A DNA stretch of 64,000 nt from an uncultured Gammaproteobacteria bacterium (GTDB lineage: Bacteria > Patescibacteriota > Microgenomatia > CAZETR01). Where the stretch lies: NCBI GenBank assembly GCA_964514545.1, contig CAZETR010000011.1:26294-90293 (forward strand). The letters are read 5' to 3'. This document shows, piece after piece, positions 1 through 56,450 of the stretch. The notes beneath the pieces are model-generated. The model saw only the letters and a list, made by a program, of their open reading frames with translations, was not told the DNA's origin and searched no databases. Position 1 is the first letter of the stretch; every line of letters starts with the position of its first letter. Position numbers and translations under genes: made by a program.

Positions 1-1725
1 TATGACTATGAAAATAAATAGCAAAGTCGAGATTAATATTTGCGTCCGGGCATGAAGTATAAAGGTTTCCTCGCCTGAGTTAAGAGAGGCTAGTAGGACA
101 TTTGCGTAATCTTTGAGGGTTAGATTTCTGGTAATTTCACTTCCGGTACTTGCCGCTGATGCAAGCGCTTTAAGTTTGGAATATCCAAGGACGCTGATTC
201 CCATATTCCAGGAAATCAGTAATGATTGGGTAAGAGACAAAAGCCCAAGGAGAATAACAATGTATTGCGCCGATACCTTTAACTTGCGGGAGATAAATTG
301 CGCTCCCAGACCCACGGCTATACAGATTAGCGGGACTAGTGGGAGCAAATACCTGGATGAGGCAGTCGATCCCATAAATAGTATCCATATCCAATACCAC
401 ATGAAGCTAACAAGCACGAAGCCGTTCAGGTACTGTGGAAGTAGAAGAACTAGTAATCCTAATGCTTTCGGAATCAAAAATAACGATCCGAATGATTTGA
501 GAAGAATCGGAGCTGCCAATTCTGAATGCTTCTGTGATTGCGACACTGGCTCTCTGTTGAGAATTTGTGAAACTTCGTGGACCGGGATGGTTGAGGGACG
601 TGCATCAGAGAAAGGAACTCTATAAATAATCTGGTTTCTAATAATCCACGTAAAACCCAGGAGAGAAGATATGCCCAGAATAATAATGACTCGTTTGGTG
701 ATATTTTGTCCGATGATTTTTTTCCTATGGAGGATATTTCCCAGAAGTATTACAGCTAGCGAGAGAATGACCGTAATCACGTTGTTGGGCAAAGCAAAGC
801 TAGCTGAGGTGTAAATAGTCGGCCTGATAGTAAAAATGATAAAGGTCACTACTAGTGCAGCCAGGGCAAGTGTTTTTGCCCGTTGGGTTAGCTTGTTTGA
901 TAAAATCAAAAAGAAAAAGATTGGATAATAAAAGATTCCTTGAAATTTTAAGAGAAAACTTGTTGTTAACGCGAGGCCTGCGCTGATTCCAGATGAAGTC
1001 GTTAACAACTGGGTGGATTTGCGATAAATGAAAACGAACAGCGCGGAAAATAGGATCTCGGGATAAAGTGCAAATGTCATGAGGAACTCGTCATTGAAGG
1101 GAAGAAAGGTGAATACCAGGGAACTCAAGGTGGCTAATTTTTTTCCAAAGATTTCTTTACAGAGAAAATAGTTCATTGCAAAGAAAAGTAAGTAGTGCAA
1201 AATTGGCAAGGCTTTAAAGGCTTGGGTACGGGGATTGTTTGTGACCGCCATGGCAACTGAAAAGAGAATCCATCCCCCGGGAGGAGGGACAACCATTGGC
1301 TCGCGCGTAAGTACGGTGTCAGTTGGGATGTGAGACTTAAGATGCGTCGACTGAGCGAATGGTAGATAGGAATTTGTAACATCGGGGTCAACGATCGGCC
1401 TGATAATTGTGAAGATCATCATCTTTAGAATGACTGCGATGAAGATGATTCCAAGAGGTGTTATTTTGGGTATTTTGAACGGTTTTAACTTAAAGATCTC
1501 TCTTATTCCTCTGGCCAGGAGAATCGATTGGCAGATGAAAAAAACTTTCGCCCAAAGATTAAAATTGATAGGAAGAAGGCCAATGATTGTGTAGAGGATA
1601 GTTGATATAGATAGGCCAATGATTGCAGATTCCACAAGACTAACGATCGCCATCGGTCGTCTTGGGATGCCCAGTATCCACAGTGAGACTATGGCTGGGA
1701 AAAGAACTGTCAGTGCAATTTCCAT
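1..1725 (-). CDS. Polytopic membrane protein, C-terminally truncated at the window edge (N-terminus MEIALTVLFPAIVSLWILGIPRRP...); possible GT-C-like membrane glycosyltransferase
   Basis: Reverse complement of 1..1725 translated manually. It gives an uninterrupted 575-codon frame from ATG at 1725 with no stop before position 1. The product is hydrophobic and multi-spanning, with a DPD acidic motif in an early loop. It is missing from the ORF track because it runs off the window edge. All short ORFs listed in 113..1594 are antisense to it or out of frame. Confidence 0.6.
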   Translation of the reverse strand, partial: MEIALTVLFPAIVSLWILGIPRRPMAIVSLVESAIIGLSISTILYTIIGLLPINFNLWAKVFFICQSILLARGIREIFKLKPFKIPKITPLGIIFIAVILKMMIFTIIRPIVDPDVTNSYLPFAQSTHLKSHIPTDTVLTREPMVVPPPGGWILFSVAMAVTNNPRTQAFKALPILHYLLFFAMNYFLCKEIFGKKLATLSSLVFTFLPFNDEFLMTFALYPEILFSALFVFIYRKSTQLLTTSSGISAGLALTTSFLLKFQGIFYYPIFFFLILSNKLTQRAKTLALAALVVTFIIFTIRPTIYTSASFALPNNVITVILSLAVILLGNILHRKKIIGQNITKRVIIILGISSLLGFTWIIRNQIIYRVPFSDARPSTIPVHEVSQILNREPVSQSQKHSELAAPILLKSFGSLFLIPKALGLLVLLLPQYLNGFVLVSFMWYWIWILFMGSTASSRYLLPLVPLICIAVGLGAQFISRKLKVSAQYIVILLGLLSLTQSLLISWNMGISVLGYSKLKALASAASTGSEITRNLTLKDYANVLLASLNSGEETFILHARTQILISTLLFIFIVI

Positions 1726-1742
1726 TTGTTAACTCGATGAAT

Positions 1743-2807
1743 TTACCCGCGACCTGACGGTCGGGGTGTCTTCTCGCGTTCGGACTTCGTCCGAAACTGG
1801 TCGCTCATCCCGCGGTCTGACGACCGGGGTATTACGCGTCGCGATAAAATGGTCTGAATTTTCCAGTAAACCGGGCCTATGTTTTTGGCCAATTTATTTT
1901 TAAATCTCATTAGAAGATTCCCGTAGTGATTTTTTACCTTATACGCAGAATCTATGTTCCTGATTGTTAAGATGGCTTCCTTGGTTGCAGTAATGTATGG
2001 GCTATAAATTAATTTTCTAACGTTACTTGTTAGCCTATATCCCGCCGAATAATCGAACTTATTTTCAGAAAGAAGCAGAAATTGGTGAAAATGGTAGCAA
2101 ATTAACCTGTCCCGTTCTATATAAACTGTTTTATCTTTCTCTGTAACACTATATTGTCCGATGTTCCAGGGAGCTGCGTTCACGCCAAGATTTTTTGAAA
2201 TAACAAGTTGTTTATAAAGCGAGGGCCATTCGTTTAGATACATTTGGTCGCCTAACTTATTGTCTTCATATTTCCAGTAGCACCAATCCAGGCATTGCTT
2301 TCGCCATTTTCGAAGACACGCCATCCCCTCTTTGTTCCCTGCAAAGATTTGAAATCCGACGTTAAATCTGCCAATAAGCGAGATTCTGTATTCCTGTCCG
2401 AGTGGATACCTGCTCTCTACTATATATATTGATCCTCCGTTGAGTTCAGCAAACACCGGGTCAATTTTTCCAAAAAGGTACAAGTCGGCGTCCAAATAAA
2501 CCACATACCTGGTCTTGAAATCGTGCCTAAAAATGTAGAGGGGTAATGAGGGCGTACAGGTCCAGTAATATTCCACCCAGTTCCTGTTATTTTTTGCCTT
2601 TAGTAGCTCTTTGTCTTCAAACTCCGCGAGCGGGACAAGCTTGGCGTTTTTGAGCTTCATCTTTGTTAGGATATCGAGGGTATAGTCGTCCATGCAGAGA
2701 ATCCATAACTTTGAATTTGGATGAAACTTTATTAGCGACGTGTAAAGGGCCAGTCCTTTGGGTAAATAACTTTTATCGAAGTAGGTACAAAAGACAAAAT
2801 TATCCAT
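1743..2807 (-). CDS. Putative nucleotide-diphospho-sugar glycosyltransferase (DxD-type: YVVYLDADLYLF); the C-terminal ~35 aa is encoded by a GC-rich hairpin island
   Basis: 354-aa ORF. N-terminal FCTYFDKSYLPKGLALYTSL plus a DAD motif resemble GT8/GT32-like sugar transferases. The basic, low-complexity C-terminus RVIPRSSDRGMSDQFRTKSEREKTPRPSGRG maps exactly onto the GC-rich segment 1745-1845. Confidence 0.5.
   Translation of the reverse strand: MDNFVFCTYFDKSYLPKGLALYTSLIKFHPNSKLWILCMDDYTLDILTKMKLKNAKLVPLAEFEDKELLKAKNNRNWVEYYWTCTPSLPLYIFRHDFKTRYVVYLDADLYLFGKIDPVFAELNGGSIYIVESRYPLGQEYRISLIGRFNVGFQIFAGNKEGMACLRKWRKQCLDWCYWKYEDNKLGDQMYLNEWPSLYKQLVISKNLGVNAAPWNIGQYSVTEKDKTVYIERDRLICYHFHQFLLLSENKFDYSAGYRLTSNVRKLIYSPYITATKEAILTIRNIDSAYKVKNHYGNLLMRFKNKLAKNIGPVYWKIQTILSRRVIPRSSDRGMSDQFRTKSEREKTPRPSGRG
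1745..1845. repeat. GC-rich island of three hairpins at a gene junction
   Basis: Hairpin 1 (1746-1766) is CCCGCGACC-TGAC-GGTCGGGG. A central hairpin (about 1778-1797) has stem TTCGGAC/GTCCGAA with loop TTC. Hairpin 2 (1809-1829) is CCCGCGGTC-TGAC-GACCGGGG; it uses the same loop and outer stem, with compensatory inner-stem changes (ACC/GGT to GTC/GAC). Confidence 0.5.
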
Positions 2808-3672
2808 ATAGATAAACTTTATTTAGGCTGCCGAGCATTTTTTTTGCCAGACTGACGAAGTTGACAAATTTGTATCTGGGCGGACAATAAAGTCGAATAA
2901 AATTGATGGAGTCAAAGATGTTTAACCTCGAGCGCCGGGAAAAAATTAATTTCAAAGCGTTTTTGAAATGTATTTTTTTGAGTGTATGTTCATGCCCTAG
3001 TCCGGTTAAATTGGATTTATTGTATATGATTGCCTTGTAGTAGATTGCTATTTTAAGCCCCTTTAATTTTGCTCTACACCCAAACTCGTAGTCGGAAAGA
3101 TAATGCGGAAAGGCAATATCGTTAAACAGTCCAATGGATTTAAATACACTTGTTTTATATAGCGTGCCCTTGGTTGAAAGAGTATCGATATTGGTTTCTA
3201 CTTCCAATGTTTCTTGCCAACCAGATTTGAGGATAATGGGTACATATTTGCAATTTGCCCAGTCGATATTAATCCCGGCATCGATAACCTTTTTTCCGTC
3301 TTGACTTACACACAGAGATCCAATTATTTCGTACTTGATGTTTTGACTAAATGCTACCAGGCGTCCTACATAGTCTGTATCGAAAGTGCAATCGTTGTTG
3401 ACGATTAAGACGAAATCGCTCTTTCGGGAAACCTTTAGAATTTCTTCTAAACCCCGGTTTATGGATCTGGTCCACCACAGGTTGCCGTCTCCTTCTAAAA
3501 CGGATAGGTTCTTTTGCCTACGTAAATATTGAAGTGTTCCGTCCGTCGATCCATCGTCCACGATAAAAGTTCTTAGGTTAGGATAACTTTGCTTTTTAAT
3601 ACTAGAAAGCAGTTTTTTGGTTTCATTTAATCTGTTGTGGACTGCTGTAAGAATGTAGACTGTGGGTTTCAT
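2800..3672 (-). CDS. Glycosyltransferase family 2
   Basis: Motifs ILTAVHNR...QSYPNLRTFIVDDGSTDGT and DxD. The likely start is the internal MKPTVYI at 3672, which gives an ATGA overlap with the stop of the upstream gene at 3669. Confidence 0.8.
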   Translation of the reverse strand: MKPTVYILTAVHNRLNETKKLLSSIKKQSYPNLRTFIVDDGSTDGTLQYLRRQKNLSVLEGDGNLWWTRSINRGLEEILKVSRKSDFVLIVNNDCTFDTDYVGRLVAFSQNIKYEIIGSLCVSQDGKKVIDAGINIDWANCKYVPIILKSGWQETLEVETNIDTLSTKGTLYKTSVFKSIGLFNDIAFPHYLSDYEFGCRAKLKGLKIAIYYKAIIYNKSNLTGLGHEHTLKKIHFKNALKLIFSRRSRLNIFDSINFIRLYCPPRYKFVNFVSLAKKMLGSLNKVYLYG

Positions 3673-4634
3673 TTGTCGGTTTCTAAAAATACCAGCCAAC
3701 TCTCGCCTAACCCGAGAAAATCTATCAGACGATTGAATGGAATACACGCAACGAGAAATGACCAGACCACTAGTTTGTACATGGACTGGGTAGCGCTAGA
3801 TCTATTAGGAGATAGTGAATCTGTTGGATTATCCCAGATTGGATTTGGCACTCCATGTTTTGCTTTTTTAACGAGGCTGCGAATTTGCAAGAGCGTCCAT
3901 AAATTTGGGGTAATAGTTCTCACTCTGGTGATTTTTAAGTTGTTTATTTTAGCCAGATGGTTAAGGGACTTTAAGGTAAAAAGGTTTTGATGAAATGGCA
4001 CGTGCCAATGAAGCCATTTACGCCCCAACATTTTTCGGGTAAGAGAATTCAGGTTTGGAGTACTAAGAATTATTTTTCCTGCTGGTTTTAGTTTTTTCTT
4101 TGCGGCTTGCAAGAACAATGCAGGATCCGACACGTGTTCTATCACTTGACTGGCAGTTACCACGTCAAATTTAAGTTTAGGAAACGGATTATTTGTAATT
4201 TCTCCTTGAAATACATTTAGATTGAGGGCTCTGGCAATCTTTTGAGCCATTGGGTCAGGTTCAACTCCATAGCCAGTAGATTTTTGGTCTTTAATCTCGA
4301 GTAGCGAAACTCCCGATCCTGATCCAATATCCAAAACCAGATTATGTGGCTTAATTTGCTTATGGGCTATATTGTCGATTCCTAATAACCAGCTACCAAC
4401 TTTCCCAATCTTCGAGATGGAGCTTTTCACCTGCTGGGGTGTGAATTTAGACAGAGGGTAATATTTGCTATATATTTTAGGTATCTCGTTTTTTTTTAAC
4501 CGAGGATAAGTCTGACCAAGTGAGCAGTTTTTACACTGTAGAACTGAATACTTTCCAGAAGATCCGTATCTGTCGTCGAAAAGACCACTTTCCAAAAGAT
4601 TGAGTTTTGTTTTTTTGCAAAGAACGCAGTTCAT
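3669..4634 (-). CDS. Class I SAM-dependent methyltransferase with an N-terminal Cys4 zinc-ribbon
   Basis: N-terminal CxxC...CxxC (MNCVLCKK...CKNCS). SAM motif VLDIGSGSGVSL and VTASQVIEHVSDP. Confidence 0.7.
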   Translation of the reverse strand: MNCVLCKKTKLNLLESGLFDDRYGSSGKYSVLQCKNCSLGQTYPRLKKNEIPKIYSKYYPLSKFTPQQVKSSISKIGKVGSWLLGIDNIAHKQIKPHNLVLDIGSGSGVSLLEIKDQKSTGYGVEPDPMAQKIARALNLNVFQGEITNNPFPKLKFDVVTASQVIEHVSDPALFLQAAKKKLKPAGKIILSTPNLNSLTRKMLGRKWLHWHVPFHQNLFTLKSLNHLAKINNLKITRVRTITPNLWTLLQIRSLVKKAKHGVPNPIWDNPTDSLSPNRSSATQSMYKLVVWSFLVACIPFNRLIDFLGLGESWLVFLETDK

Positions 4635-5308
4635 TTTTGCCCTTTTAACAGATAGACCGCTGTGACTGTAAAAAGATTTGGAAACATTCGCAAAACTGCC
4701 TCTGGAATTGGGCCAAGTTTGTGGATGGTAAAAAGGTGTCTATCTAAAATCTTAAGTCTTCTTTCCGCGCAGAATTTTTCAAAGTCTACGATAGATAATT
4801 GGTGAATAAGGCCTGTAGAGTACCATCTCTGGTTGGTAAACATTTTCATAGGTATTCTCCCGTCAAATAGTAGCTCGAACCTATTGTTAATGAAAGCAAA
4901 ATTGGGAAAAGAAACAATTTGTCTTTTTGCCACTCTCGCCATTTCGCTTAACAAGATCTCGGGATAAAAAACCATTTGAAGAGTAACATTGCATATTGCA
5001 AAGTCAAAATCCCTTTTTTTATATTTTAATTTTGTATCAATTCTTCCGACTGTTGCTGTAATTCCTTTTTTGCGTGCTGAATTTACACCGGAGCGCGAGA
5101 TATCTATTCCTTCGCCATTTATGCCTTTTTCAATAAGGAGCTTGAGAAGTGAGCCGTCACCGCAACCTAAATCCAGGACACTTGCGTTCGCTGGTATCCA
5201 GTCTTTGATAACACTATATTCAGCACGTTGCGAGCTCCCGTTTAGTTTATAACTATAATTTCGATTGTCACTCATTTTTCGAGTAGATAAACGGCGCTTG
5301 AAGCCCAA
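4631..5308 (-). CDS. MetW-like SAM-dependent methyltransferase (paralog A)
   Basis: VLDLGCGDGSLLKLL plus RQIVSFPNFAF closely resemble the MetW domain (CIVSFPNFGHW). Confidence 0.7.
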   Translation of the reverse strand: MGFKRRLSTRKMSDNRNYSYKLNGSSQRAEYSVIKDWIPANASVLDLGCGDGSLLKLLIEKGINGEGIDISRSGVNSARKKGITATVGRIDTKLKYKKRDFDFAICNVTLQMVFYPEILLSEMARVAKRQIVSFPNFAFINNRFELLFDGRIPMKMFTNQRWYSTGLIHQLSIVDFEKFCAERRLKILDRHLFTIHKLGPIPEAVLRMFPNLFTVTAVYLLKGQK

Positions 5309-5910
5309 AGATTTGAATGTCCGGCCAATAATATTCCAGGAATCGCTCCTAGTTTCGAAAAAATAAAAGGATGATGCATAATTTTTTTAACTTTCTTACG
5401 TTCTATATATTCCTCAAAATCTCGGATCGAGAACTGGTGGATATGTCCGGTTGAATACCAGTTGTACCCGAAAAGGGTAAATCTGGGAAACCTGCCGTTA
5501 AATAGCAGATCTAGTCTGTTTAGGATAAACGCAAAATTGGGGAAAGATACTATTTGGCGCTTTGAGACCCGAACCATTTCTGAAAGCAAAATATCCGGGT
5601 ACATGACCATTTGTATGGTAACGCAGCAGATCGAATAGTCGAAACTGTTGTTTGGGTAGGGCAACTTCTTGTCTATTCTCCCTTTGAAGGCAGTAACTCC
5701 CTTTCTCCTTGCTGACTTTACGGCAGTTGGAGAAATATCCAGACCGATTCCACGAATCTTTTTCTTTTGCAGTGACTTAAGAAGTGAACCATCGCCACAG
5801 CCGAGATCTAGAACCCTGCTTCCAGCTTCGACCAGGTCAAATATTTCTTTAAATTCAGCTCTACTAGTTTGTGAGTCGGGTGCGTACTCGTAATTTCTAT
5901 TATCGTTCAT
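5272..5910 (-). CDS. MetW-like SAM-dependent methyltransferase (paralog B)
   Basis: VLDLGCGDGSLLKSL and RQIVSFPNFAF. This is a tandem paralog of 4631..5308 with visible nucleotide-level similarity. Confidence 0.7.
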   Translation of the reverse strand: MNDNRNYEYAPDSQTSRAEFKEIFDLVEAGSRVLDLGCGDGSLLKSLQKKKIRGIGLDISPTAVKSARRKGVTAFKGRIDKKLPYPNNSFDYSICCVTIQMVMYPDILLSEMVRVSKRQIVSFPNFAFILNRLDLLFNGRFPRFTLFGYNWYSTGHIHQFSIRDFEEYIERKKVKKIMHHPFIFSKLGAIPGILLAGHSNLWASSAVYLLEK

Positions 5911-6044
5911 TTTTCTTTTTTATTCTGCACTTTTATTCATATGGATTATAAACTACCTTGGCCCTACCCACCGACTAAAGTTTGAGTATTGGTTGAGTTG
6001 AACAAAGTTGTTTACCTGAAACTCAATACATATGGTATACTTTT
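5911..6044. promoter_or_regulatory. Divergent intergenic region, probably carrying promoters for both flanking operons
   Basis: 134-nt AT-rich gap between head-to-head genes. It contains a TATACT -10-like hexamer and a short inverted repeat (TTGAGT/ACTCAA). Confidence 0.3.
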
Positions 6045-6890
6045 GTGATTCAAAAATTGAATATGCGAGATAAAAAACGGACAATTTACGAAAAAATTAT
6101 CTCTGGTCTCGTGACACATGTCGACCCTAGGACTCGACTGGCCGGATATGTCTATAGTTTAGCTAAGAGGTACTGTTCTGCTTATCAAGGTGAAAACGAT
6201 CCTGATTACCACACTAACGGGCAGCGGAATTTCTATAAAAAATTAGTTTTATCAGGTAATACAAAATTAGTAGTCATTGTCGGTGCGAACATTGGAGAAA
6301 TGTCGAATTATCTTCTTTCTCTGGAAAAAGGGATTGAGGTGCATTGTTTTGAGCCGGATCCAAGAGCGTTTAAAATTCTCCAAACAAAATTAAATGTCTC
6401 AAACGCCGTATTGAATCAACTGGCCGTAGGAGACAGGGTAGAAATAAAACCAATGCATATGCATAAGAAATTTAGTGAGTGGAATACTTTTCATGTATAT
6501 CCTCATCGACTAAAAGAGTTTAGATCCCAGTCAGTAAAAGTTACCACTCTCGATTCGTATCTTTCGGGAAAAAATATCTCCCACGTTGACTTATTGAAGA
6601 TCGATACGGAGGGCCACGACTTTTTTGTGCTTAAGGGAACAAGCCGTTATTTGCAACGAGCTGCAATTGACGTAATTATATTTGAGTACGGAGAGGTGTC
6701 TATGCTATCCCGACAGCTGTTTTATGACATCTATTCGTATCTTGAAGGCAATGGATATCGAGTATATAAAATAATGCCAAACTATCTGAAGAGAATTAGA
6801 TACTCGCCAGATGATGAACGATGTTTTTATGCCAACTTTGTTGCCATTCGAAGAGATTTTAACATTGGAAGTATAGAAACTGATGACTAA
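6045..6890 (+). CDS. FkbM-family methyltransferase
   Basis: VIVGANIGEMS...HCFEPDP...LKIDTEGHDFFVL matches the FkbM-family signature (TIGR01444-like). Confidence 0.75.
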   Translation: MIQKLNMRDKKRTIYEKIISGLVTHVDPRTRLAGYVYSLAKRYCSAYQGENDPDYHTNGQRNFYKKLVLSGNTKLVVIVGANIGEMSNYLLSLEKGIEVHCFEPDPRAFKILQTKLNVSNAVLNQLAVGDRVEIKPMHMHKKFSEWNTFHVYPHRLKEFRSQSVKVTTLDSYLSGKNISHVDLLKIDTEGHDFFVLKGTSRYLQRAAIDVIIFEYGEVSMLSRQLFYDIYSYLEGNGYRVYKIMPNYLKRIRYSPDDERCFYANFVAIRRDFNIGSIETDD

Positions 6891-24613: not shown

Positions 24614-25429
24614 TCAGATGATGTCTGCTATATATTTTTCTGTGTGTTTGAAGTAAGCAAGTCCTGAGGCAAAAATTATGACAGCTGAAGTTATGGATGT
24701 AATAATAACCGGCCAATTAAGAATCACTGTCCCGGACAATGCCTCTCTGGATGAATCAATGACTGCGGTCATGGGATTTAGCGCCATAATTAATTTATTT
24801 GTGGAGCTGACAATACTTAAGGGATATATCACGGGAGTGACAAATAGCAGAATTTGAATAAAGAATGGAAGGATATACCTAACGTCGCGAAATCGAACGT
24901 TTAGAGCGCTGGTAAATAAGCTAAGTCCGGCAGAGGTTACGGTGGTTAGCAGAATTGCAAGTGGAATAATCAATATCGCGTAGATAGATGGCGTGAATTT
25001 TAGTACCAGGGAATAGAGTATTAATATAATAAGATTAATGGTGAAGTCTACAAAGCTGACAAGTATGGATGATAGCGGGAGAAAAATCTTGGGAAAATAG
25101 ACTTTTTTGATCAGATTTTCATTTTCAATCAAAGAATTACTGGCATGGCTGAGTACCCCCGAAAAAAAATTCCAGAAAACTAATCCCCCTAGAACAAAAA
25201 GCGAGTATGGCAATTTACCTGAGGAAATGCGAGCTAATTTTCCGAAGAAAACAGTGAATATAATCATGGTTGTAACGGGTTGAAAAACTGTCCATGCAAT
25301 CCCCAGGAAAGTTTGCTTATATCTAACTTTTATATCTCTCCAGGCGAAAATAAAAAATAGTTCCCGAAACCGCCACAGTTCTTTCCAGTCAATATTCCAC
25401 CAATTATTGCGGGGAGTAATTGTAATCAT
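24614..25429 (-). CDS. wzm: ABC-2 type polysaccharide export permease Wzm
   Basis: REL...RDIKVRYKQTFLGIAWTVFQP ABC-2 signature, six predicted TM helices, ATGA-coupled to wzt. Confidence 0.85.
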   Translation of the reverse strand: MITITPRNNWWNIDWKELWRFRELFFIFAWRDIKVRYKQTFLGIAWTVFQPVTTMIIFTVFFGKLARISSGKLPYSLFVLGGLVFWNFFSGVLSHASNSLIENENLIKKVYFPKIFLPLSSILVSFVDFTINLIILILYSLVLKFTPSIYAILIIPLAILLTTVTSAGLSLFTSALNVRFRDVRYILPFFIQILLFVTPVIYPLSIVSSTNKLIMALNPMTAVIDSSREALSGTVILNWPVIITSITSAVIIFASGLAYFKHTEKYIADII

Positions 25430-27471
25430 GTGCCCTGGGGGTTAAGCAAGTAGAGATTTTTAATTATCATGCTTGAGTTGCATATTAACAAATTTCTTAT
25501 TTCGAGGCGATAAAGAGAGTAGTCTTCTTTTCGACTGATGTTTAGGTTAATTGGTTTTCTGCATTTTTCCCTATCGGCAAAATATAGCATTTTGTTTTCT
25601 GCAACGAGATGTTTTAGTTCCTCCATTGGGGTGGCCTCGTAAAAGTCAAGAGGTAGAAGTTCGCAATTTACATTAAATATGTGTGTCCACCCATCTTCGG
25701 CTTTTCTAATTACATCTTCATCAGCCAGGAATAATTCCTTTTTTCCTAAAGTGCCGCACCACTTGTAAATATCCCCGGTCACTCTGTGTCTGTCTTTTAA
25801 CCAATCGTAGATATCTGTTTTGCCTAAGGCGTAGCGGATCTCTTGGGGGGAAATATATGATTTCAGTGAGTAGATTCTTTTAACATTGAAGGCAAAAAAA
25901 TACCCGGCGAATAAAAATAAAACCACTGAATATACTTTGTTTAGTTTCTTTAGACTTCTAGATTTAGAATGAAGCGATAAGGGAATAGTTAGTAGTAGAG
26001 CCAGAACTATCTGCAGAAAGTAAAAGTATCTATCAACATATCCGGTAAAATATTTGATGACAACGAAAGAGAGAGTTGAGCATGAGAGCAAAAACAGAGC
26101 TATTTTGATGGTAGGTAATCGCCGGCTCTTGAGAATTAATAATAATGCAGGAATTAAGAGTAATAGATAGATCGAGTGTCCCTTGGTTATCCCTATTGCC
26201 AGTTGAGGTAAATAAGAAAAGGAAATAGGAATGGTAGCTCCAAAAATGCTATTTGTAACCGAACAGAGTGCCTGATCGCATTTAAATACATTTCCCAGAA
26301 ATGGAAAAATTGGGTTTCCGGTAAGTGCCAAGTTTTTGAGGTACCAAAATCCTCCAAAAAAGACGAGTAGGGAAATAAGCTTAAGAATACTGCTTGGCTT
26401 TAGAATTTTAGAAAACCTCGTCACAAATTTCGCACTTTCTTCTTTGCCTGCGGGTCCTGTCGCGAGTTGTCCTTCCCGCCAGTGCTCGCGGGATTTACCC
26501 GTCTGCGCGCTGTCGGGCGTGCTCGCTGACGCTGTGCCTTGCAGTGCAAGCCTTCCTCTCGCACCACCCGCGTTATTTGTAGACGCAAAACTTATTGCTG
26601 TGTAGGCCAACCAAACCACGAAAATGGTATAGGATGTGGCAAAAGGAACCAGAGATGGATATTTGCTGCCAATAGACATGGCACTAAACACCATACTTGC
26701 GTAAAGGTAATTGGCGGTTTTGGTCAGAATAAACTCAATCATTGTAATCATGCCAAGTACTGTTAGGGCGGCCGTTGAGTAGTCTATATATCCGGAAGTA
26801 GCAACTATTAATAAATCGTGATTTAGAAACAAAAAAATCCAAAGAAACGCAAAAGCTGATAGGTGTGATGTGCGTGATTTAAACCATGCGTAAATGGCGC
26901 TGACGGACGAATAAAAAATCGCAAAATGAAGAAGGCGCGTGGGAGAGTAAGTTTTGGTAAGTGAAAATGGAATCGCAAAAAAAAGGTCTAGTTCTTTCGG
27001 AAGGCTCGGGTGGACGCTTTCATAATCTATTTTCCAGGTTGAGTTGTATGTTTCGTATGGCGACAAGAAGTGATACTGCATCTCGTCCGTGAGATACGGG
27101 GGAAGAGAGCTCTTGACGAGCAAGATCGGAAGAAATATTAGTATGGGCATGATTGATAGCAGATTTGCTTTTATAAAAACCGTGAGTGAGCGCCACTCGC
27201 GGTTTTTTATATAACTTGGTAGAGCAATTATTAGTAACGGAACCAGTGACCAAAGCACATAGTTGGGTCTTATGGGAATAAGAAACCTAAGCCAGAACCA
27301 CTCAAAAACGATTGCCCCTACTCCATAGATCCAGATTGCCGGACGGATAAAACTGGGGGACTTAATGAATTTCTTGTCTATAAATACGCCTAATACGTCA
27401 AAGTATACAAAGAGTCCAAGGGAGATTAACAGAAGGAGGGGCGAGAGGGGCCTGAAGTATTCAGATAACAT
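25426..27471 (-). CDS. Large polytopic membrane protein, PPY-DEM-YH family paralog 1 (putative GT-C-like), with GC-rich in-frame insertion
   Basis: Conserved loop motif SSLPPYLTDEMQYHF, plus LTKTYSPTRLL and SGYIDYST, all shared with 27474..29396 and 33138..34928. Has a soluble C-terminal domain. A ~60-aa low-complexity insert (STNNAGGARGRLALQGTASASTPDSAQTGKSREHW...) is absent from paralog 2. Confidence 0.6.
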   Translation of the reverse strand: MLSEYFRPLSPLLLLISLGLFVYFDVLGVFIDKKFIKSPSFIRPAIWIYGVGAIVFEWFWLRFLIPIRPNYVLWSLVPLLIIALPSYIKNREWRSLTVFIKANLLSIMPILIFLPILLVKSSLPPYLTDEMQYHFLSPYETYNSTWKIDYESVHPSLPKELDLFFAIPFSLTKTYSPTRLLHFAIFYSSVSAIYAWFKSRTSHLSAFAFLWIFLFLNHDLLIVATSGYIDYSTAALTVLGMITMIEFILTKTANYLYASMVFSAMSIGSKYPSLVPFATSYTIFVVWLAYTAISFASTNNAGGARGRLALQGTASASTPDSAQTGKSREHWREGQLATGPAGKEESAKFVTRFSKILKPSSILKLISLLVFFGGFWYLKNLALTGNPIFPFLGNVFKCDQALCSVTNSIFGATIPISFSYLPQLAIGITKGHSIYLLLLIPALLLILKSRRLPTIKIALFLLSCSTLSFVVIKYFTGYVDRYFYFLQIVLALLLTIPLSLHSKSRSLKKLNKVYSVVLFLFAGYFFAFNVKRIYSLKSYISPQEIRYALGKTDIYDWLKDRHRVTGDIYKWCGTLGKKELFLADEDVIRKAEDGWTHIFNVNCELLPLDFYEATPMEELKHLVAENKMLYFADREKCRKPINLNISRKEDYSLYRLEIRNLLICNSSMIIKNLYLLNPQGT
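26445..26572. repeat. GC-rich hairpin-rich island inserted in-frame in a membrane-protein gene
   Basis: About 130 nt of much higher GC than its surroundings. Contains stems CGCGAG/CTCGCG, TCCCGC/GCGGGA and CTTGCA/TGCAAG. Corresponds to the extra loop insert relative to the paralog. Confidence 0.45.
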
Positions 27472-27473
27472 CG

Positions 27474-29396
27474 CTATAGCTTGTACGAAACAGAATTATT
27501 TATTTTTTGAGGATCGAAGAGATAAACATTTTTTACAACCGGGGTGGAGTTACAGACAAGTAAGTTTCTAACCTCTTCCCTAAAAATAACCCTGTTTTCT
27601 TCTCTGGTAATACTAAGGTTGTATCGATCGCGGCAAGCTTTTCTATCTGCCAAATATAGTTTCTTGTTTTGTTTTACCATCAAATTAAATGCTTCAATTG
27701 GCGTGGAACCTGTAAACTCGGTAGCAATCAATTTACAGTTAACGTTAAATATCTGGCCCGGGCTCTCGTCCGGGTCGTGTATGAGCCACTCATCGATCAG
27801 CTCCAGCTCTTTTTCTCCGGGAGTACCGCACCAGGCGAACAAATCGCCGTTGTGTCGATGCCGGTCTTTAAGCCAATCAAAAATGTTTGTTTTTCCAAAA
27901 GCGAAATTTATTTCCTGGGGCGAAACATAAAATCTCGTGGAATAGATTGTCTTTGTCGTTGATGATAGTTTTCCAATGAGGAAAGAAAGAAGAATTATTT
28001 TGTAGCTTATGAGTAAAACTTTTCCAGTGGGACTCTTGAGCTTTATGGCAAATGGTAGAGCTAACACTAGTGTCAAAATTATTTGGAGGAAATAGAAGTA
28101 TCGGTCGACAAAGCCCGAGAATAGTTTAATGATGGGAAATACAATTGTCCCGCTAAGGAGAAGAAATGTCGCAATTCTAGTTAGTTGGGGCTTTCTTCCG
28201 ATAATTAAAATTAGGGCTGCTGGGATCATCAAGGCCACTAAGATCGAGTTTCCCCTAGTGGCGCTAATTACTATTTGAGGGAGATTTGACAAAGTTAAGG
28301 GTGTAGTCCAACTGCCAAAAAAACCTTCGGTGCTATAACAATTATTAAACCTGCACTTAAAAACGTTGGAAAGGAAAGGGTAGAGTGGGTTACCTGTGTA
28401 AATCCAGGTTTTAATATACCAAAACCCGCCGAACAAAACTAGAATAAAAATTATTCTAAGTATCAGAGCTTTGCTGAGAAGTTGTTTGTGTCGGTTTATG
28501 ATGCCCCATCCTGATAGAAGAGTCATCGATACAACAAAAGGGGCCAGGCCGGGGAGTTTGCTGCCAATTGTCAGTCCCCAGAAAGCAAAGCTGGCCATAA
28601 GGACTCCCGGATTAGTACTTAGAAAGTATTCGATCAAGGTAACGATGCCAAGAGCGGTTAGAGAAGCGGTGGAGTAATCTATATAACCGCTAGTTGCCAT
28701 GATGAGCATGTCGTGGTGGAGAAACAAATAAAGAAGTGAAAAAATGGCGGCCGCCCGTAAATTGCTCCGGGACTTGAACCATGCATAAATGGACCAGATT
28801 CCGCTATAAAGAATCATGAAGTGCAGAAGTCTGGCCGGAGCAAATGTTTTGGTGAGTGCAAAAGGAATATTTAAAAAAAGATCCATTTCTTTGGGCAAAT
28901 TTGGATAAAACCTGTCATTGAAAATCCATAATCCGGTTTTAAAGTCCTTGGGTTGGGTCCAGGTAACGTGATTTGCCTCAAAGGGGGACATGAAGTGATA
29001 GGCCATTTCGTCCGTGGTGTATGGAGGCAGAGAGCTTTTGACAAAGAGAATTGGCAGGAATATGGCTAGGGGGATGAGCAGAAAAGCATTACTTTTTATG
29101 AAGACAAATAGTTCAAGCCAGTTTTTGTTTTTTATATAACTCGGGACCGAAATGACGGCCAGTGTGATCAAGGCTAAAAATATCGGTAGGGAGCGTAAGG
29201 GGAAAAAGAAATGAACAAAAAAACTAACAATAACCACCACGCCTAACCCAAAAAACCAGATCACGGGGCGGAGAAATTGGGGGGATTTAATTAGACGCTT
29301 ATCGACGAATATGCCTAACGCGTCGAGAAAAAGGAAAAATATGATTACAAACCCAAGTAGGCCTGGTGTCAGTGGTTTAAAATATTCGGAGAGCAT
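27474..29396 (-). CDS. Large polytopic membrane protein, PPY-DEM-YH family paralog 2 (putative GT-C-like)
   Basis: SSLPPYTTDEMAYHF, LTKTFAPARLL, SGYIDYST. The C-terminal domain is conserved with paralog 1 (SPQEI.FAFGKTNIFDWLKDRHR). Confidence 0.6.
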   Translation of the reverse strand: MLSEYFKPLTPGLLGFVIIFFLFLDALGIFVDKRLIKSPQFLRPVIWFFGLGVVVIVSFFVHFFFPLRSLPIFLALITLAVISVPSYIKNKNWLELFVFIKSNAFLLIPLAIFLPILFVKSSLPPYTTDEMAYHFMSPFEANHVTWTQPKDFKTGLWIFNDRFYPNLPKEMDLFLNIPFALTKTFAPARLLHFMILYSGIWSIYAWFKSRSNLRAAAIFSLLYLFLHHDMLIMATSGYIDYSTASLTALGIVTLIEYFLSTNPGVLMASFAFWGLTIGSKLPGLAPFVVSMTLLSGWGIINRHKQLLSKALILRIIFILVLFGGFWYIKTWIYTGNPLYPFLSNVFKCRFNNCYSTEGFFGSWTTPLTLSNLPQIVISATRGNSILVALMIPAALILIIGRKPQLTRIATFLLLSGTIVFPIIKLFSGFVDRYFYFLQIILTLVLALPFAIKLKSPTGKVLLISYKIILLSFLIGKLSSTTKTIYSTRFYVSPQEINFAFGKTNIFDWLKDRHRHNGDLFAWCGTPGEKELELIDEWLIHDPDESPGQIFNVNCKLIATEFTGSTPIEAFNLMVKQNKKLYLADRKACRDRYNLSITREENRVIFREEVRNLLVCNSTPVVKNVYLFDPQKINNSVSYKL

Positions 29397-53168: not shown

Positions 53169-54798
53169 TTGGAAAGTTGATCGTTTTAATGGGTGAAATG
53201 CCTGCGGGCGCCTCTTCCGGGGAGGTAATAATGAGAGCGTTGTGGTACTCGGCCATATTGTCCCATTTTATTGGTTTGAACTCAAATTTGCTGAATCTCT
53301 CAACTGTCGAAAAGCCGAAATTGTCACGGGGTGTCAGAACATGATCGGCCTGAAATTGCGACGGGTTGAAACCTGTAAAGAAAAGGGTAAGTATGTACGG
53401 TTGGTCATATCTGTCGGTGATCACGATTTTATCAAAGTTTGAGCCATTTTCTCTAAGATACTTGACCAATTCCTGAAAGCCGTATTGGGATGAAAATGGT
53501 AAACTTTTGGCCAAGTGATTATAGTACTGATGAAGGTAATAGGTAAAATTCCAAGTTATTACTGCAAGTAGAAGGATATGCACTAACAGATTCTTGGGGC
53601 GGGCTTTTGGTCGCCCAATTATCGAAACGAGTCCAAACGCAGATATGAGTTCCAGGGGGATAATCATGTTTTCGGCGCGTAAGGCGTGGGGACTTTGGAA
53701 AGTCAGAGAGGATGCAAGTGGAGCGATGATAAGCCATAGAATTGGAAACTTGCCTAATCCTTTTGCGCCAGCAAGGAAAATTATGCCGATGGCAAGAGTT
53801 GGGATTTCAAAATAATAAAGCAGGCCCATGTTAGGGATTTTATTTCTCTGGATTTCGTCTCCACTAATAAAAAGGAAGTCAGCCGAAAAATGTCGGGTGT
53901 AATTGTCGAAGAAACGAATTGTATATTCGACAAGGCGGTTGTGAATTAGTTTCGCTCCTTGGCTAAACGGAAAACGATGCTGGGATCTCAGTTCATCCGA
54001 GCGCGATTTAGGTCCAGGATCAGATGTGATGCCGACTCCCAGAAATCTAGCTGAAGCACGGCTACTGAAAAAGCTGGCTACTATAGGTAATAATAAAATT
54101 ATAGAGATTGCAATTGATGGTAGTAGCTTACTAAGTTCGGGTCGCTCACTTCTTGGGGTGGTTAAATAAAGTGCAAGAGCCAATATTGGAGCGACCAGGC
54201 GCATCGAGTGGTAGAGGTACATCGTAAGCAGAAAGGCAAATACGGAAAGTTTGGGAGATCGGGCTAGTTTGACAGACTTAATGTACTGCAGGATACCAAA
54301 GAGAAGTACTGTAGTTGCTGCGTTACTCTCCCAACCACCACGCGAAAAGTGGATATGCCATGGAGAAATAGCTAGGAGGAAACCAGCGACGGTTCCGATT
54401 GAAAATTGAATACTGAAAATTGAAAATTGTTTACCCGGGTAAATTAGGTTTGCAAGCTCGCTTATAAGAAAGATGGAGAAGATCGAGAGGAGGATATTGG
54501 GAAGGCGGACCGCGAGTGTGTTTAGACCAAGTGTTTTAACAAACGGGAGAGCAAGGTAGAAATAGGCTCCCGGTTTGTAATCATTGAATGATTGAAATTC
54601 AAACGGCCAGGGACGGCCGTGTTCGTCTTTTCCGGTTTTGATCAAAGAATAGGTGTTATAACCGATGGCTGCTTCATCGGCATTCAGAGCCGGAAGCGAG
54701 CTGATCTTATAGAATCTGAGAACTGAAGATAAAAGAAGAATGAGAAAAAGAGGAATATTTTTCTTCCACTTCACTGCCATGACTTTAATCGGGTTCAT
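53134..54798 (-). CDS. GT39/ArnT-family (PMT_2) membrane glycosyltransferase, paralog 1
   Basis: LNADEAAIGYNTYSLIKTGKDEHG N-terminal loop with DE, SPWHIHFSRGGWESN, and more than ten TM segments. Confidence 0.8.
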   Translation of the reverse strand: MNPIKVMAVKWKKNIPLFLILLLSSVLRFYKISSLPALNADEAAIGYNTYSLIKTGKDEHGRPWPFEFQSFNDYKPGAYFYLALPFVKTLGLNTLAVRLPNILLSIFSIFLISELANLIYPGKQFSIFSIQFSIGTVAGFLLAISPWHIHFSRGGWESNAATTVLLFGILQYIKSVKLARSPKLSVFAFLLTMYLYHSMRLVAPILALALYLTTPRSERPELSKLLPSIAISIILLLPIVASFFSSRASARFLGVGITSDPGPKSRSDELRSQHRFPFSQGAKLIHNRLVEYTIRFFDNYTRHFSADFLFISGDEIQRNKIPNMGLLYYFEIPTLAIGIIFLAGAKGLGKFPILWLIIAPLASSLTFQSPHALRAENMIIPLELISAFGLVSIIGRPKARPKNLLVHILLLAVITWNFTYYLHQYYNHLAKSLPFSSQYGFQELVKYLRENGSNFDKIVITDRYDQPYILTLFFTGFNPSQFQADHVLTPRDNFGFSTVERFSKFEFKPIKWDNMAEYHNALIITSPEEAPAGISPIKTINFPNGKPAFELFRV

Positions 54799-56450
54799 TG
54801 TTTTTTGGATGCGAAAATATAGAAAGCCGGAGATTTGTCAGGGTATTCAATTTCTTTAACCAGCCTTACATCGGTTTGGTTTTTGGCGTTTGGATCCATG
54901 GCAAGAGGCTCCCCTACAACAAGGGTGTTCGATAGGTATTTATCCCCACTCCAGGCAAGCGGCCGAAACTCCACGTTGTCAATTTTTTCGATTAATCCAA
55001 CGTCTCCGTTTGGATTTTCCTTTAGTCTGACTTGGGGCCACCATTTCCGCGGGTCATATTTTTGATAAAAGAGAAAATAAATATAGGGTTGAGCGTAACT
55101 TTGGTTGAAAATAATTTTTTGGTATTGGGTCTGAATAGGGCTTAAGGCATTTACTACTTGTTTATAGCCAAAGTACCAATATTTAGCGTTGAGGAGAGAT
55201 GTGTGGATAAATTCCAGATCAAGAAACCTAACCAAAGAGATTGTGTATAAAATGATGATTAGAGCGATAATTGGTTTTGCGCTTTTAAAAGATCTGACCA
55301 GGTAAATTAGTCCGAATGCTGTCGCAAGAGTTAGCGGAGCAACAAAATTTAATGATCTGACCCCGTGTATTATGTCTCTGGAAAGGGCCGCCGAGAGAGG
55401 GGCTGTGGCAAGCCAGTAAAGCATAAATTTTTGACCTGATGATGAGGAGTTTACAATCTTGACTACACCGATAACTAAAAATACGGCTTCGAATATGTAC
55501 ATTACCCCGTGGTAGGGAGTTGAATGCCTAAGTGTCGTCCAATCGCCTTCAAATAAGAGAAATCTTGGAGAGAAGTAATTGAAATAGTGCAAGAGAAAAA
55601 CTTTAGAGAGATATAGGGGTTCCGAGTGATAAAGATAATAGGATAGGGTTTTTTGTGATTTTCCATCTTCGGACAGAAGTTGAGAGATTTCTTCCGGTGA
55701 TCTCCTGTAAGCAAATAAACTATAGACCTTGAGTCTTCCTGAACCAGTGCGCAGTGAAATAATTATCGGTAGTGCCAGAAGAGATAAAACGATAGTTGGT
55801 TTAATTAGGACTTTAGTTTGCGGCAGTTTGATTCTGTAGGCTAGTAAAAGCGACAAGATTGTTAACGGGGTGGATAATTTTGCTCCCTGGTAAGCCCAGA
55901 AGGTAAAACCAAAAAGTAGCGCCGAATAGTAATAAAATTTTGGTCTGTCGAGTGATTTTAAAAAGAAATGGATACCGGCCAAAGTAAGAGTAAGCGCGAG
56001 ATTTGATTCCCAGGCTCCCCTGGAGAGGTGGATGTGCCAAGGGGAGAGTGCGAGCAAGAAACTGGCGACGTGCCCAACGTTAAGTTTTAAGAAACTAGTT
56101 TTAACGTTGTTCTCGGAAAACAACGCGTTTGCGATAAAATATATCATTAGAACTGCCACTAATCCGGCTATGGCGCCCGGAAGACGAGTCGAGAATTCGT
56201 TGAGTCCAAAGATGGCTATAAACGGTATGTCTGAATAAATATAAAGACCCGGTTTATAATCCCCGAATGATTTAAAGACAATTGGGAACCTCTGACCGTA
56301 TTCGTCCCTGCCTGTTTTTAGAATCGAGTAAGCGTTGTAGCCCAGTGCTGCCTCGTCTGGTGTCAGATGGATTGGATTTGTACCCAGACCCCAGAATCGC
56401 AAAATTGTCGCTATAACTAATATTGAGAGTAAGGGTAAGTTCTTGAGCAT
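54795..56450 (-). CDS. GT39/ArnT-family membrane glycosyltransferase, paralog 2
   Basis: LTPDEAALGYNAYSILKTGRDEYG; SPWHIHLSRGAWESN. Confidence 0.8.
   Translation of the reverse strand: MLKNLPLLSILVIATILRFWGLGTNPIHLTPDEAALGYNAYSILKTGRDEYGQRFPIVFKSFGDYKPGLYIYSDIPFIAIFGLNEFSTRLPGAIAGLVAVLMIYFIANALFSENNVKTSFLKLNVGHVASFLLALSPWHIHLSRGAWESNLALTLTLAGIHFFLKSLDRPKFYYYSALLFGFTFWAYQGAKLSTPLTILSLLLAYRIKLPQTKVLIKPTIVLSLLALPIIISLRTGSGRLKVYSLFAYRRSPEEISQLLSEDGKSQKTLSYYLYHSEPLYLSKVFLLHYFNYFSPRFLLFEGDWTTLRHSTPYHGVMYIFEAVFLVIGVVKIVNSSSSGQKFMLYWLATAPLSAALSRDIIHGVRSLNFVAPLTLATAFGLIYLVRSFKSAKPIIALIIILYTISLVRFLDLEFIHTSLLNAKYWYFGYKQVVNALSPIQTQYQKIIFNQSYAQPYIYFLFYQKYDPRKWWPQVRLKENPNGDVGLIEKIDNVEFRPLAWSGDKYLSNTLVVGEPLAMDPNAKNQTDVRLVKEIEYPDKSPAFYIFASKKQ

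Follow-up and report, generated by a model that had tools for sequence, protein, structure and literature searches.

We analysed a 64-kb stretch of DNA from a Patescibacteria genome (contig CAZETR010000011.1; the window from here on), in which a GC-rich patch with three hairpins lies at the end of a glycosyltransferase (GT) gene, shortly before the next gene on the minus strand. This patch is very probably a non-autonomous element of the IS200/IS605 type, a palindrome-associated transposable element (PATE), which occupies 107 nucleotides (nt) at positions 1737-1843 and has the minus strand as its active (top) strand. The two similar hairpins near its borders are the two ends of one mobile element and not duplicated regulatory modules. 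The insertion of such a hairpin-ended mini-transposon would explain in one event both the odd, CpG-dense structured patch and the non-conserved basic tail of the glycosyltransferase.

The hairpin region was read directly at 1700-1870. On the plus strand hairpin 1 (1746-1766) reads CCC-G-CGACC TGAC GGTCG-GGG and hairpin 2 (1809-1829) reads CCC-G-CGGTC TGAC GACCG-GGG. In both, which are 21 nt long, an outer stem of 3 bp is separated by a 1-nt bulge from an inner stem of 5 bp with the loop TGAC; the inner stems of the two differ in two compensated pairs. An internal hairpin with a perfect 7-bp stem and a 3-nt loop (1779-1795; TTCGGAC TTC GTCCGAA) is found between them. The shared architecture, the compensatory swap and the perfect stem in between had been pointed out in a preliminary description of this DNA, and our reading agreed with it on all of them. 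The motif CCCGCGNNNTGACNNNCGGGG occurred exactly twice in the 64 kb, even with two mismatches permitted, while shuffled sequences gave 0.02 matches on average and none of 100 shuffles reached two. The GC content of the patch was 65% as compared to the window mean of 41%, and its 18 CpG per 100 nt were the maximum of the window (mean 3.9).

A dispersed family with defined ends and target

A scan for CCCGCGRYCTGACGRYCGGGG with one genome per species gave 70 hits. Sixty-seven of them were found in DNA of 53-79% GC, where chance matches are expected, and the other three (L124, L148 and L167) in one genome of 40% GC, Microgenomates group bacterium Gr01-1014_5, as copies of one element of approximately 130 nt. 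These copies have a start (ATGAA...CCCGCGACCTGACGGTCGGGGT.TCTTCTC) and an end (...TTTCGCG...GATAAAA) in common with the window copy. When metagenomes were scanned with CGNNCTGACGNNCGGGGTNTCTTC, 38 loci were found, about 30 of them being contigs of 34-47% GC with this family. Canonical copies had a constant length of 128 nt and a flanking ATAA, and a short subfamily of about 100-107 nt was formed by the window copy and the L174 type. The copies were located in both orientations relative to the neighbouring genes and in many unrelated gene contexts, some of them inside open reading frames (ORFs). The family profile (nhmmer) matched the window at 1736-1797 (E = 6.5e-9) and detected no second copy there. 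The additional copies for which the preliminary description had proposed a genome-wide search were located in other genomes, the window itself containing a single one.

For counting ends and flanks, 25 family copies were written in top-strand orientation. TTAT was present directly 5' of the left end in 21 of the 25 copies, the rest having TCAT, CTAT, TTTA (or TTAC) and TTAG, and the 3' end of the element was TCAT in 22 copies. Neither terminal inverted repeats nor a target duplication were found among the 25 copies, and the flanks were otherwise unrelated. Four contigs from four metagenomes (L199, L176, L190 and L195) represent one genomic region and are 99.9% identical. In L199 and L176 the site is empty and reads ...AATAATTTAT|AGCCGTAATAC..., the part after the insertion point starting with AGCC. 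In L190 and L195 the same site is filled with 128 nt (CCCCCTTCGCG...GGGAGTTTCAT), which are located exactly 3' of TTAT with no duplication. This presence/absence pair is direct evidence of the mobility of the family. The ends of the window copy were set by alignment to the approximately 25 family copies together with this pair of empty and filled sites.

At first impression the stop codons appeared to covary at the 'ATGAAG/ATAAAG' end (TGA/TAA) and at the other end (TAA/TAG/TGA) of the copies. This reading was dropped, because the TTAT target (ATAA on the other strand) often includes the TAA of a gene and because the TCAT of the right end gives TGA on the other strand.

Relatives that carry a transposase gene

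A contig of 1,039 nt (L201) contains an ORF at 206-637 that encodes 143 amino acids (aa) and matched the Pfam family Y1_Tnp (PF01797) with E 5.7e-31. Downstream of this tnpA ORF we found GAAGAAA-CCCCGACCGTCAGGTCGTGGG-AGCTTCAT|, which is the family right end, with the terminus ...GGGAGCTTCAT|; it is the reverse complement of the end of the family that reads 'ATGAAGCT-hairpin-TATCTTC'. The orientation of tnpA and right end in L201 establishes that the top strand corresponds to the minus strand of the window. The plus strand as the active strand was ruled out by the same orientation and by the distances between hairpins and ends. Except for the bulged base, the right palindrome of the window copy is identical to the hairpin at the right end of L201 (CCCCGACCGTCAGGTCGTGGG) and to the one at the left end of another relative (L220).

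Homologues of the L201 transposase were abundant, and relatives with tnpA were found in L210-L222. One transposase (P0132) was present in 10 places with at least 5 distinct flanks per side and a second one (P0153) in 3 places, and in both the same hairpin was found upstream and downstream of tnpA in direct orientation.

The cleavage rules of this type of element are known from IS608, which inserts 3' of TTAC with no gain or loss of DNA (PMC3201880; PMC5934647). The left cleavage site, TTAC, is outside the insertion sequence and 19 nt 5' of the left hairpin, and the right one, TCAA, follows the right hairpin at a distance of 10 nt on the 3' side; for their recognition IS608 has two 4-nt guides, GL AAAG and GR GAAT, just 5' of the hairpin feet (PMC3201880; PMC5934647). 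In the present family the left hairpin was between 14 nt (window copy) and 16-17 nt away from its cleavage point, and the right hairpin 8-9 nt. Written as guide/site, IS608 has AAAG/TTAC on the left and GAAT/TCAA on the right, according to the same papers. The corresponding pairs are AAAA/TTAT and GATA/TCAT in canonical family copies, and AATA/TTAT (complementary at 4/4 positions) and GACA/TCAT in the window copy. Among the relatives with a transposase they are AGAT/TCTA and AAAA/TTAT in L210-L219, the flanks of which become conserved exactly at TCTA, and AATT/TTAA and AATA/TTAT in L220, the boundary of which was placed from a single site. As far as the sequences can tell, the left guide and its site covary across the relatives, consistent with what the IS608 mechanism predicts. 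The series AAAA or AATA/TTAT, AGAT/TCTA and AATT/TTAA would thus be a natural covariation in line with the IS608 rule.

Two observations concern the transposase relatives themselves. A protein that is 79% identical to the L201 transposase (P0122) belongs, by NCBI annotation, to a metagenome-assembled genome of a 'Candidatus Micrarchaeota archaeon', which points either to a spread across domains between ultra-small organisms that occur together or to an error of binning. Just downstream of the IS200-like element in L201, at 680-1039, there is an ORF with a YADDF motif (…FNHYVRYADDFVFLS…), which resembles a reverse transcriptase fragment of the group II intron or retron type.

Parts of the element and predicted mechanism

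On the top strand the element reads 5'-CGCGACGCGTAATA-left hairpin-...-right hairpin-TAAATTCAT-3'. The target and left cleavage tetranucleotide TTAT (1844-1847, minus strand; ATAA on the plus strand) lies in the flanking DNA, outside the element, as part of the native GT codons ATT TTA T(CG). The element begins with a linker, CGCGACGCGT (1834-1843), that extends from the cleavage point to the guide and is predicted, in the fold of the minus strand, to pair with 1773-1778 and so to close the fold of the element; the closing helix, TCCCC/GGGGA in canonical copies, has become TCGCG/CGCGA in the window copy. The putative left guide AATA (1830-1833), the four bases directly 5' of the hairpin foot, is complementary to TTAT at every position. 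It is followed by the left subterminal imperfect palindrome, which is hairpin 2 (1809-1829), with its foot 14 nt from the left cleavage point. The internal core hairpin at 1779-1795 matches in position the internal helix of the canonical 128-nt copies. The putative right guide GACA (1767-1770), which is GATA in canonical copies, directly precedes the foot of the right hairpin. The right subterminal imperfect palindrome is hairpin 1 (1746-1766), with CCCCGACC GTCA GGTCG-C-GGG on the top strand. The right-end tail TAAATTCAT (1737-1745) ends in the right cleavage tetranucleotide TCAT (1737-1740), and its TAA at 1743-1745 is the present stop codon of GT.

We infer that the window copy arrived by an IS608-like mechanism, and a TnpA is presumably present, or was formerly present, in the source genome. 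In such a mechanism a Y1 (HUH-type) TnpA encoded elsewhere would bind both hairpins on single-stranded DNA, and each 4-nt guide would pair with its tetranucleotide to mark the site of cleavage. The top strand would be excised as a circle with the junction ...AAATTCAT|CGCGACGCG... and inserted 3' of a TTAT in a single-stranded target, without target duplication. In GT the insertion would have taken place after the T of ...ATT TTA T|CG AGT TAA, two codons ahead of the GT stop. The predicted empty junction at this locus is ...ACCATTTTAT|CGAGTTAAC..., or ...CAGACCATTTTAT|CGAGTTAACAAATGG... on the minus strand.

The glycosyltransferase gene and its tail

The GT gene (1743-2807, minus strand) is GT8-like and encodes 354 aa, which from approximately residue 323 (RRVIPRSSDRGMSDQFRTKSEREKTPRPSGRG) onwards are translated from the element. 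All genes within 1-5300 are located on the minus strand. The start codon of the downstream membrane-protein gene (1723-1725, minus strand) is 17 nt after the present GT stop, in agreement with the spacing given in the preliminary description, and 3 nt after the reconstructed native stop. Pfam gave a sub-threshold GT8 match for the protein, and PF01501 was precomputed on many of its homologues. More than 1,100 homologues were found, the best with 58% identity and several annotated as Patescibacteria; among the matches listed they were mostly 320-335 aa long, with about 90% coverage of the query. In the alignment the homologues terminate 5-12 residues past the invariant W of GPxYW, and the basic C-terminal tail was absent from all aligned homologues.

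The last 33 codons of GT and its stop are element DNA (1743-1843), close to the approximately 35 codons that had been assigned to the hairpin region earlier. The minus strand reads ...TGG AAA ATT CAG ACC ATT TTA T|CG CGA CGC GTA ATA CCC ... GGT CGC GGG TAA ATT CAT|CG AGT TAA CAA ATG. When 1737-1843 was deleted in silico, GT became a protein of 323 aa that ends in ...WKIQTILSS, with the stop TAA at 1730-1732. Two homologues of 324 aa (P0004 and P0003) have the C-termini ...WDLQSILK and ...WDLLSILR, respectively. The native end of GT can be reconstructed in this way from the insertion rule of the family and from the likeness of the C-termini in length and sequence. According to this reconstruction translation of GT would continue into the element until it meets a TAA that is in frame by chance in the right-end tail. 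In place of the final Ser codon and the stop, GT would have acquired 32 residues encoded by the element and have become 31 aa longer, with 17 nt instead of 3 nt up to the next gene.

The comparison of homologues gave the answer that the preliminary description had considered possible, namely that the enzyme normally stops before the tail. That description had also named the combination that would speak against a structural element, a lack of further copies together with a tail conserved as protein; we found copies in other genomes and a tail without conservation. The tail is supported, by the sequence comparisons, as an added element rather than an original part of GT, and the effect of the insertion on GT and on its mRNA is probably incidental. 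For annotation this means that the 31 extra residues should be kept out of the glycosyltransferase and that the hairpins should not be labelled as regulatory RNA.

A direct repeat around the patch, TGAATTTACC (1738-1747) and TGAATTTTCC (1855-1864), was considered as a target-site duplication, which was excluded by the family alignment and by the pair of empty and filled sites. Excision between the two repeats was rejected as well: GT would then end in WKIHRVNKWKLH, and the native QTIL that matches the homologues is located between the repeats.

A further case of a translated element was seen in L199, where a diverged family member is located inside an ORF at 5822-5958 (also in L176 at 4575-4711 and in L195 at 2668-2804). 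In this ORF (5616-6449, 277 aa) the element is translated in frame, giving about 50 residues more than in two neighbouring paralogues of 240/241 aa, which are presumably AbiEii-like. Elements of this family can remodel the termini of proteins and sometimes their interiors.

Covariation and the conserved core

RNAalifold was run on 17 canonical copies and covariation was counted on the resulting structure. The canonical fold consists of a terminal helix that extends the right-end hairpin, the closing helix TCCCC/GGGGA, an internal helix and a helix that encloses the left-end hairpin. On this structure 97% of the cells were paired, as compared to 93.3% in shuffles and 41-58% in slid controls. 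Eight pairs were changed on both sides, a number reached in 0/500 shuffles, and seven of these eight were in the two subterminal hairpins. In helix 6, the equivalent of the left hairpin, compensatory changes were present at 5/7 pairs across the family. The internal helices of the canonical copies were almost invariant and neither support nor contradict the fold.

This is the pattern that would be expected if the hairpins have to persist for transposase binding while the sequence of their stems is free. Since hairpin 1 is the right-end and hairpin 2 the left-end palindrome of one element, the compensatory swap between them is explained. Selection on structure, which the preliminary description had deduced from that swap, is borne out by the concentration of the compensatory changes of the family in these two hairpins; the selected structures are most likely hairpins of single-stranded DNA that a transposase recognises.

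The canonical core (columns 37-92 and 126-136 of alignment A3; TCCCC...GCTTCGTCGGGAGCGAAATCCCTCCGAAGC...CTTCGC...GCGAAGGGGGA) was almost invariant even though the end hairpins have diverged, and its fold places the two termini stacked side by side.

Alternative explanations

Several observations weigh against a transposed element of the IS200/IS605 type at 1737-1843. Only one copy is present in the window, and tblastn found no TnpA gene in the 64 kb; a weak match at 55413-55646 lies inside a PMT_2 glycosyltransferase gene and is spurious. An empty-site allele of the GT locus was not found, the nearest GT homologue being only 58% identical, and the short subfamily of the window copy was seen at one other locus only (L174 type). 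IS200/IS605 elements prefer the lagging-strand template. The cumulative GC skew rises (is positive) across the window, which by the conventional reading would make the top strand the leading-strand template, although for a single copy. G.U exceeded A.C in the paired cells (approximately 21 vs 8), mildly favouring the strand complementary to the top strand, mostly in one clade. Finally, a simple joining of two ends would not call for internal helices as conserved as those of the canonical copies.

As to this last point, it is a doubtful but conceivable idea that the canonical three-way junction either is a selected 'self-synapsing' fold of single-stranded DNA that aids an element without transposase, or encodes a small RNA that has its own function, the window copy being a stripped-down derivative. 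If the fold were self-synapsing, the left and right cleavage sites would be juxtaposed, which would make the element an efficient substrate and improve its persistence in ultra-small Patescibacteria genomes. The window copy would in either case have kept only the ends and one internal hairpin.

Of the three origins that the preliminary description had considered, an element like a repetitive extragenic palindrome (REP) came closest. A palindrome of the REP/REPIN type would be maintained by a single-copy, domesticated REP-associated tyrosine transposase (RAYT) and would not derive from a classical insertion sequence. RAYTs are Y1 transposases related to the TnpA of IS200, and REPs are thought to be mobilised by such relatives; the short GC-rich hairpins repeated at gene junctions of an AT-rich bacterial genome fit this idea. 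However, the family has a defined unit of 107-128 nt with two direct hairpins, asymmetric ends and a specific flanking TTAT. There is no GT[AG]G head beside the hairpins, their flanks being TTTA/TCAT (plus strand) and AATA/GACA (minus strand). The tnpA genes, in turn, are multi-copy and have direct hairpins at both borders and at least 5 different flanks, which is the behaviour of an insertion sequence. Formal membership among REP/RAYT systems thus fails on the head, on the arrangement and on the transposase, and we consider this explanation very unlikely.

The other two origins proposed earlier, an intercistronic processing or stability element and an attenuator, belong to the idea of a cis-acting mRNA element that was selected by the host between GT and the next gene, for which a role as a spacer in translational coupling could be added. 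The RNA of the minus strand folds well, as a folding of this transcript suggested in the preliminary description confirmed (-50.5 kcal/mol, z = -3.8; plus strand z = -1.3). The element is 17 nt upstream of the next start codon, and mRNA upstream can gain stability from the 3'-terminal hairpins of a cistron. On the other hand, the copies of the family occur in both orientations, in unrelated gene contexts and inside ORFs, their presence is polymorphic between contigs that are 99.9% identical, and both the tail and a spacer of this kind are missing from the GT homologues. A scan of 1500-2100 found no intrinsic terminator (hairpin and U-tract) on the transcribed minus strand and one weak site on the plus strand (1753-1765), within chance expectation (0.5 +/- 0.6). 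Rfam gave no match in the window at the gathering threshold and none in 1600-2000 at E <= 10. We found no evidence for either a processing or stability element or an attenuator, and host selection for an mRNA function has, in our judgement, hardly any probability; any effect of the element on mRNA would be a by-product of its insertion.

Just as improbable is that the family is primarily a structured non-coding RNA (guide-type or ribozyme-like) that has been dispersed, with the features of a DNA transposon being secondary. The constant 128 nt of the canonical copies, their multi-helix fold that stacks the termini, the nearly invariant internal loops and the strand preference in the excess of G.U over A.C would suit such an RNA. 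Yet the compensatory changes are in the transposase-type hairpins, the internal helices hardly vary and offer no support by covariation, and the window copy has kept both ends while being without the conserved internal domain. Nor did Rfam give a match for the three Gr01-1014_5 copies at E <= 1, or for the window copy at the more permissive E <= 10 mentioned above. No gene of the TnpB or IscB type was noticed beside the inspected copies, of which only a few ORFs were compared with Pfam.

The remaining candidates were dropped on simple grounds. That the canonical copies begin with ATG and have TAA behind them had suggested a gene for a small protein, which does not agree with 1-nt indels that shift the frame and with the existence of ATA variants. 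A 5' leader or riboswitch with GGGGGA as a sequestered ribosome-binding site was rejected on the mixed orientation of the neighbouring genes and on the window copy being antisense to the model. A hammerhead-like CUGANGA loop was rejected as most copies have CUGACGG and Rfam finds nothing. The loose CCCGCGNNNTGACNNNCGGGG pattern in viral contigs gave 101 single hits; these are noise, as the only three whose inner bases were complementary had GC-rich CGCGC stems.

Comparison with known elements

PATEs have been defined as elements too short for a transposase, without terminal inverted repeats or target duplication, with near-terminal palindromes, a targeting sequence of 4-5 nt at the 5' flank and a longer distance between terminus and palindrome at the 5' end (PMC3119063). 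A PATE-like remnant of IS605 is also on record in Halanaerobium hydrogeniformans (PMC7290912). The present family resembles the haloarchaeal PATEs (HqIRS families, Haloquadratum walsbyi, PMC3119063) in each of these features: the element, with 107/128 nt, is too short for a transposase, terminal inverted repeats are lacking, similar near-terminal palindromes are present at both ends in direct orientation, a short oligonucleotide is conserved at the 5' flank and the distance between terminus and palindrome is longer at the 5' end. The lack of a target duplication, also in common, was seen in L199/L176 vs L190/L195 and is presumed for the window copy. As in PATEs, the ends are shared with IS200/IS605 elements that encode a transposase. 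In contrast to the haloarchaeal PATEs, the hosts are of the Patescibacteria or candidate phyla radiation (CPR) type, with contigs of 32-48% GC, and there is no relationship in sequence. The IS200-type partner carries tnpA alone, whereas in haloarchaea elements with tnpB (IS1341-type) dominate, and the canonical copies have a strongly conserved internal three-helix core beyond the fused ends.

With IS608 of Helicobacter pylori the family has in common the subterminal imperfect hairpins, each with an unpaired base, and the position of the cleavage sites, the left one outside the element at 14-17 nt (19 in IS608) and the right one inside at 8-9 nt (10 in IS608). The 4-nt guides adjoin the hairpin feet on the 5' side and show the same pairing pattern when compared at the level of sequence. 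Unlike IS608, the element contains neither tnpA nor tnpB, its target is TTAT instead of TTAC, the hairpin sequences are different and cleavage is predicted from sequence.

GC-rich hairpins dispersed at gene junctions and a presumed dependence on a Y1 HUH transposase are shared with REPs, or bacterial interspersed mosaic elements (BIMEs), and their RAYTs; the units described here differ from them in having two ends and a target rule, in being without GT[AG]G heads or inverted pairs, and in the multiple copies of the linked transposase genes. Rickettsia palindromic elements (RPEs) are short palindromic mobile repeats that may sit in frame inside protein genes. The peptides added by translated inserts, the GT tail and the insert of approximately 50 aa in the L199 gene, recall RPEs. 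We know of no link of RPEs to IS200/IS605 ends or to a target rule of the TTAT type, and, unlike in RPEs, translation of the element appears to be accidental here.

In a limited literature search no description was found of this family or of such elements in Patescibacteria. The element is of an ordinary kind, and the family seems to be undescribed. Streamlined as they are, genomes of the Patescibacteria/CPR type host an apparently active non-autonomous IS200/IS605 family.

Other observations

Two arrangements were noted among the other family copies. In L187 (1795-1810) and L193 (3466-3480) the right end ...AGCTTCAT| is directly followed by CCCTCTTCGCCC, resembling the start of a left end (CCCCCTTCGC), as if a target site had been used twice and part of a tandem insertion had remained. 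The copies L175 1137-1269 and L188 1954-2086 have a common flank on the side of the right end and an identical right half, with a different left-end hairpin and a different other flank; this mosaic could be due to recombination between copies or to chimeras of metagenome assembly at the repeat. Around the copies of the P0132 transposase, too, upstream and downstream flanks were combined in different ways.

In the window there is a second GC-rich patch at 26431-26576, inside an ORF on the minus strand (25426-27471), with 72% GC and 14 CpG per 100 nt. Read in frame, it is a segment of approximately 60 aa (…NNAGGARGRLALQGTASASTPDSAQTGKSREHWREGQLATGPAGKEESAKF…) of a membrane protein of 681 aa, and the adjoining paralogue of 640 aa (27474-29396) is without it. 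The patch has only 9 nt (ATTTACCCG) in common with the element at 1737-1843 and gave no match to the family profile; possibly it is an insertion of another element. The two membrane proteins (25426-29396) are adjacent paralogues with 310 identical positions over a 700-column alignment, and Pfam gave no family above threshold for either of them. They are located in an apparently large minus-strand region for glycan synthesis, together with GT2, GT8-like and methyltransferase-like ORFs and the PMT_2 gene at 54795-56450.

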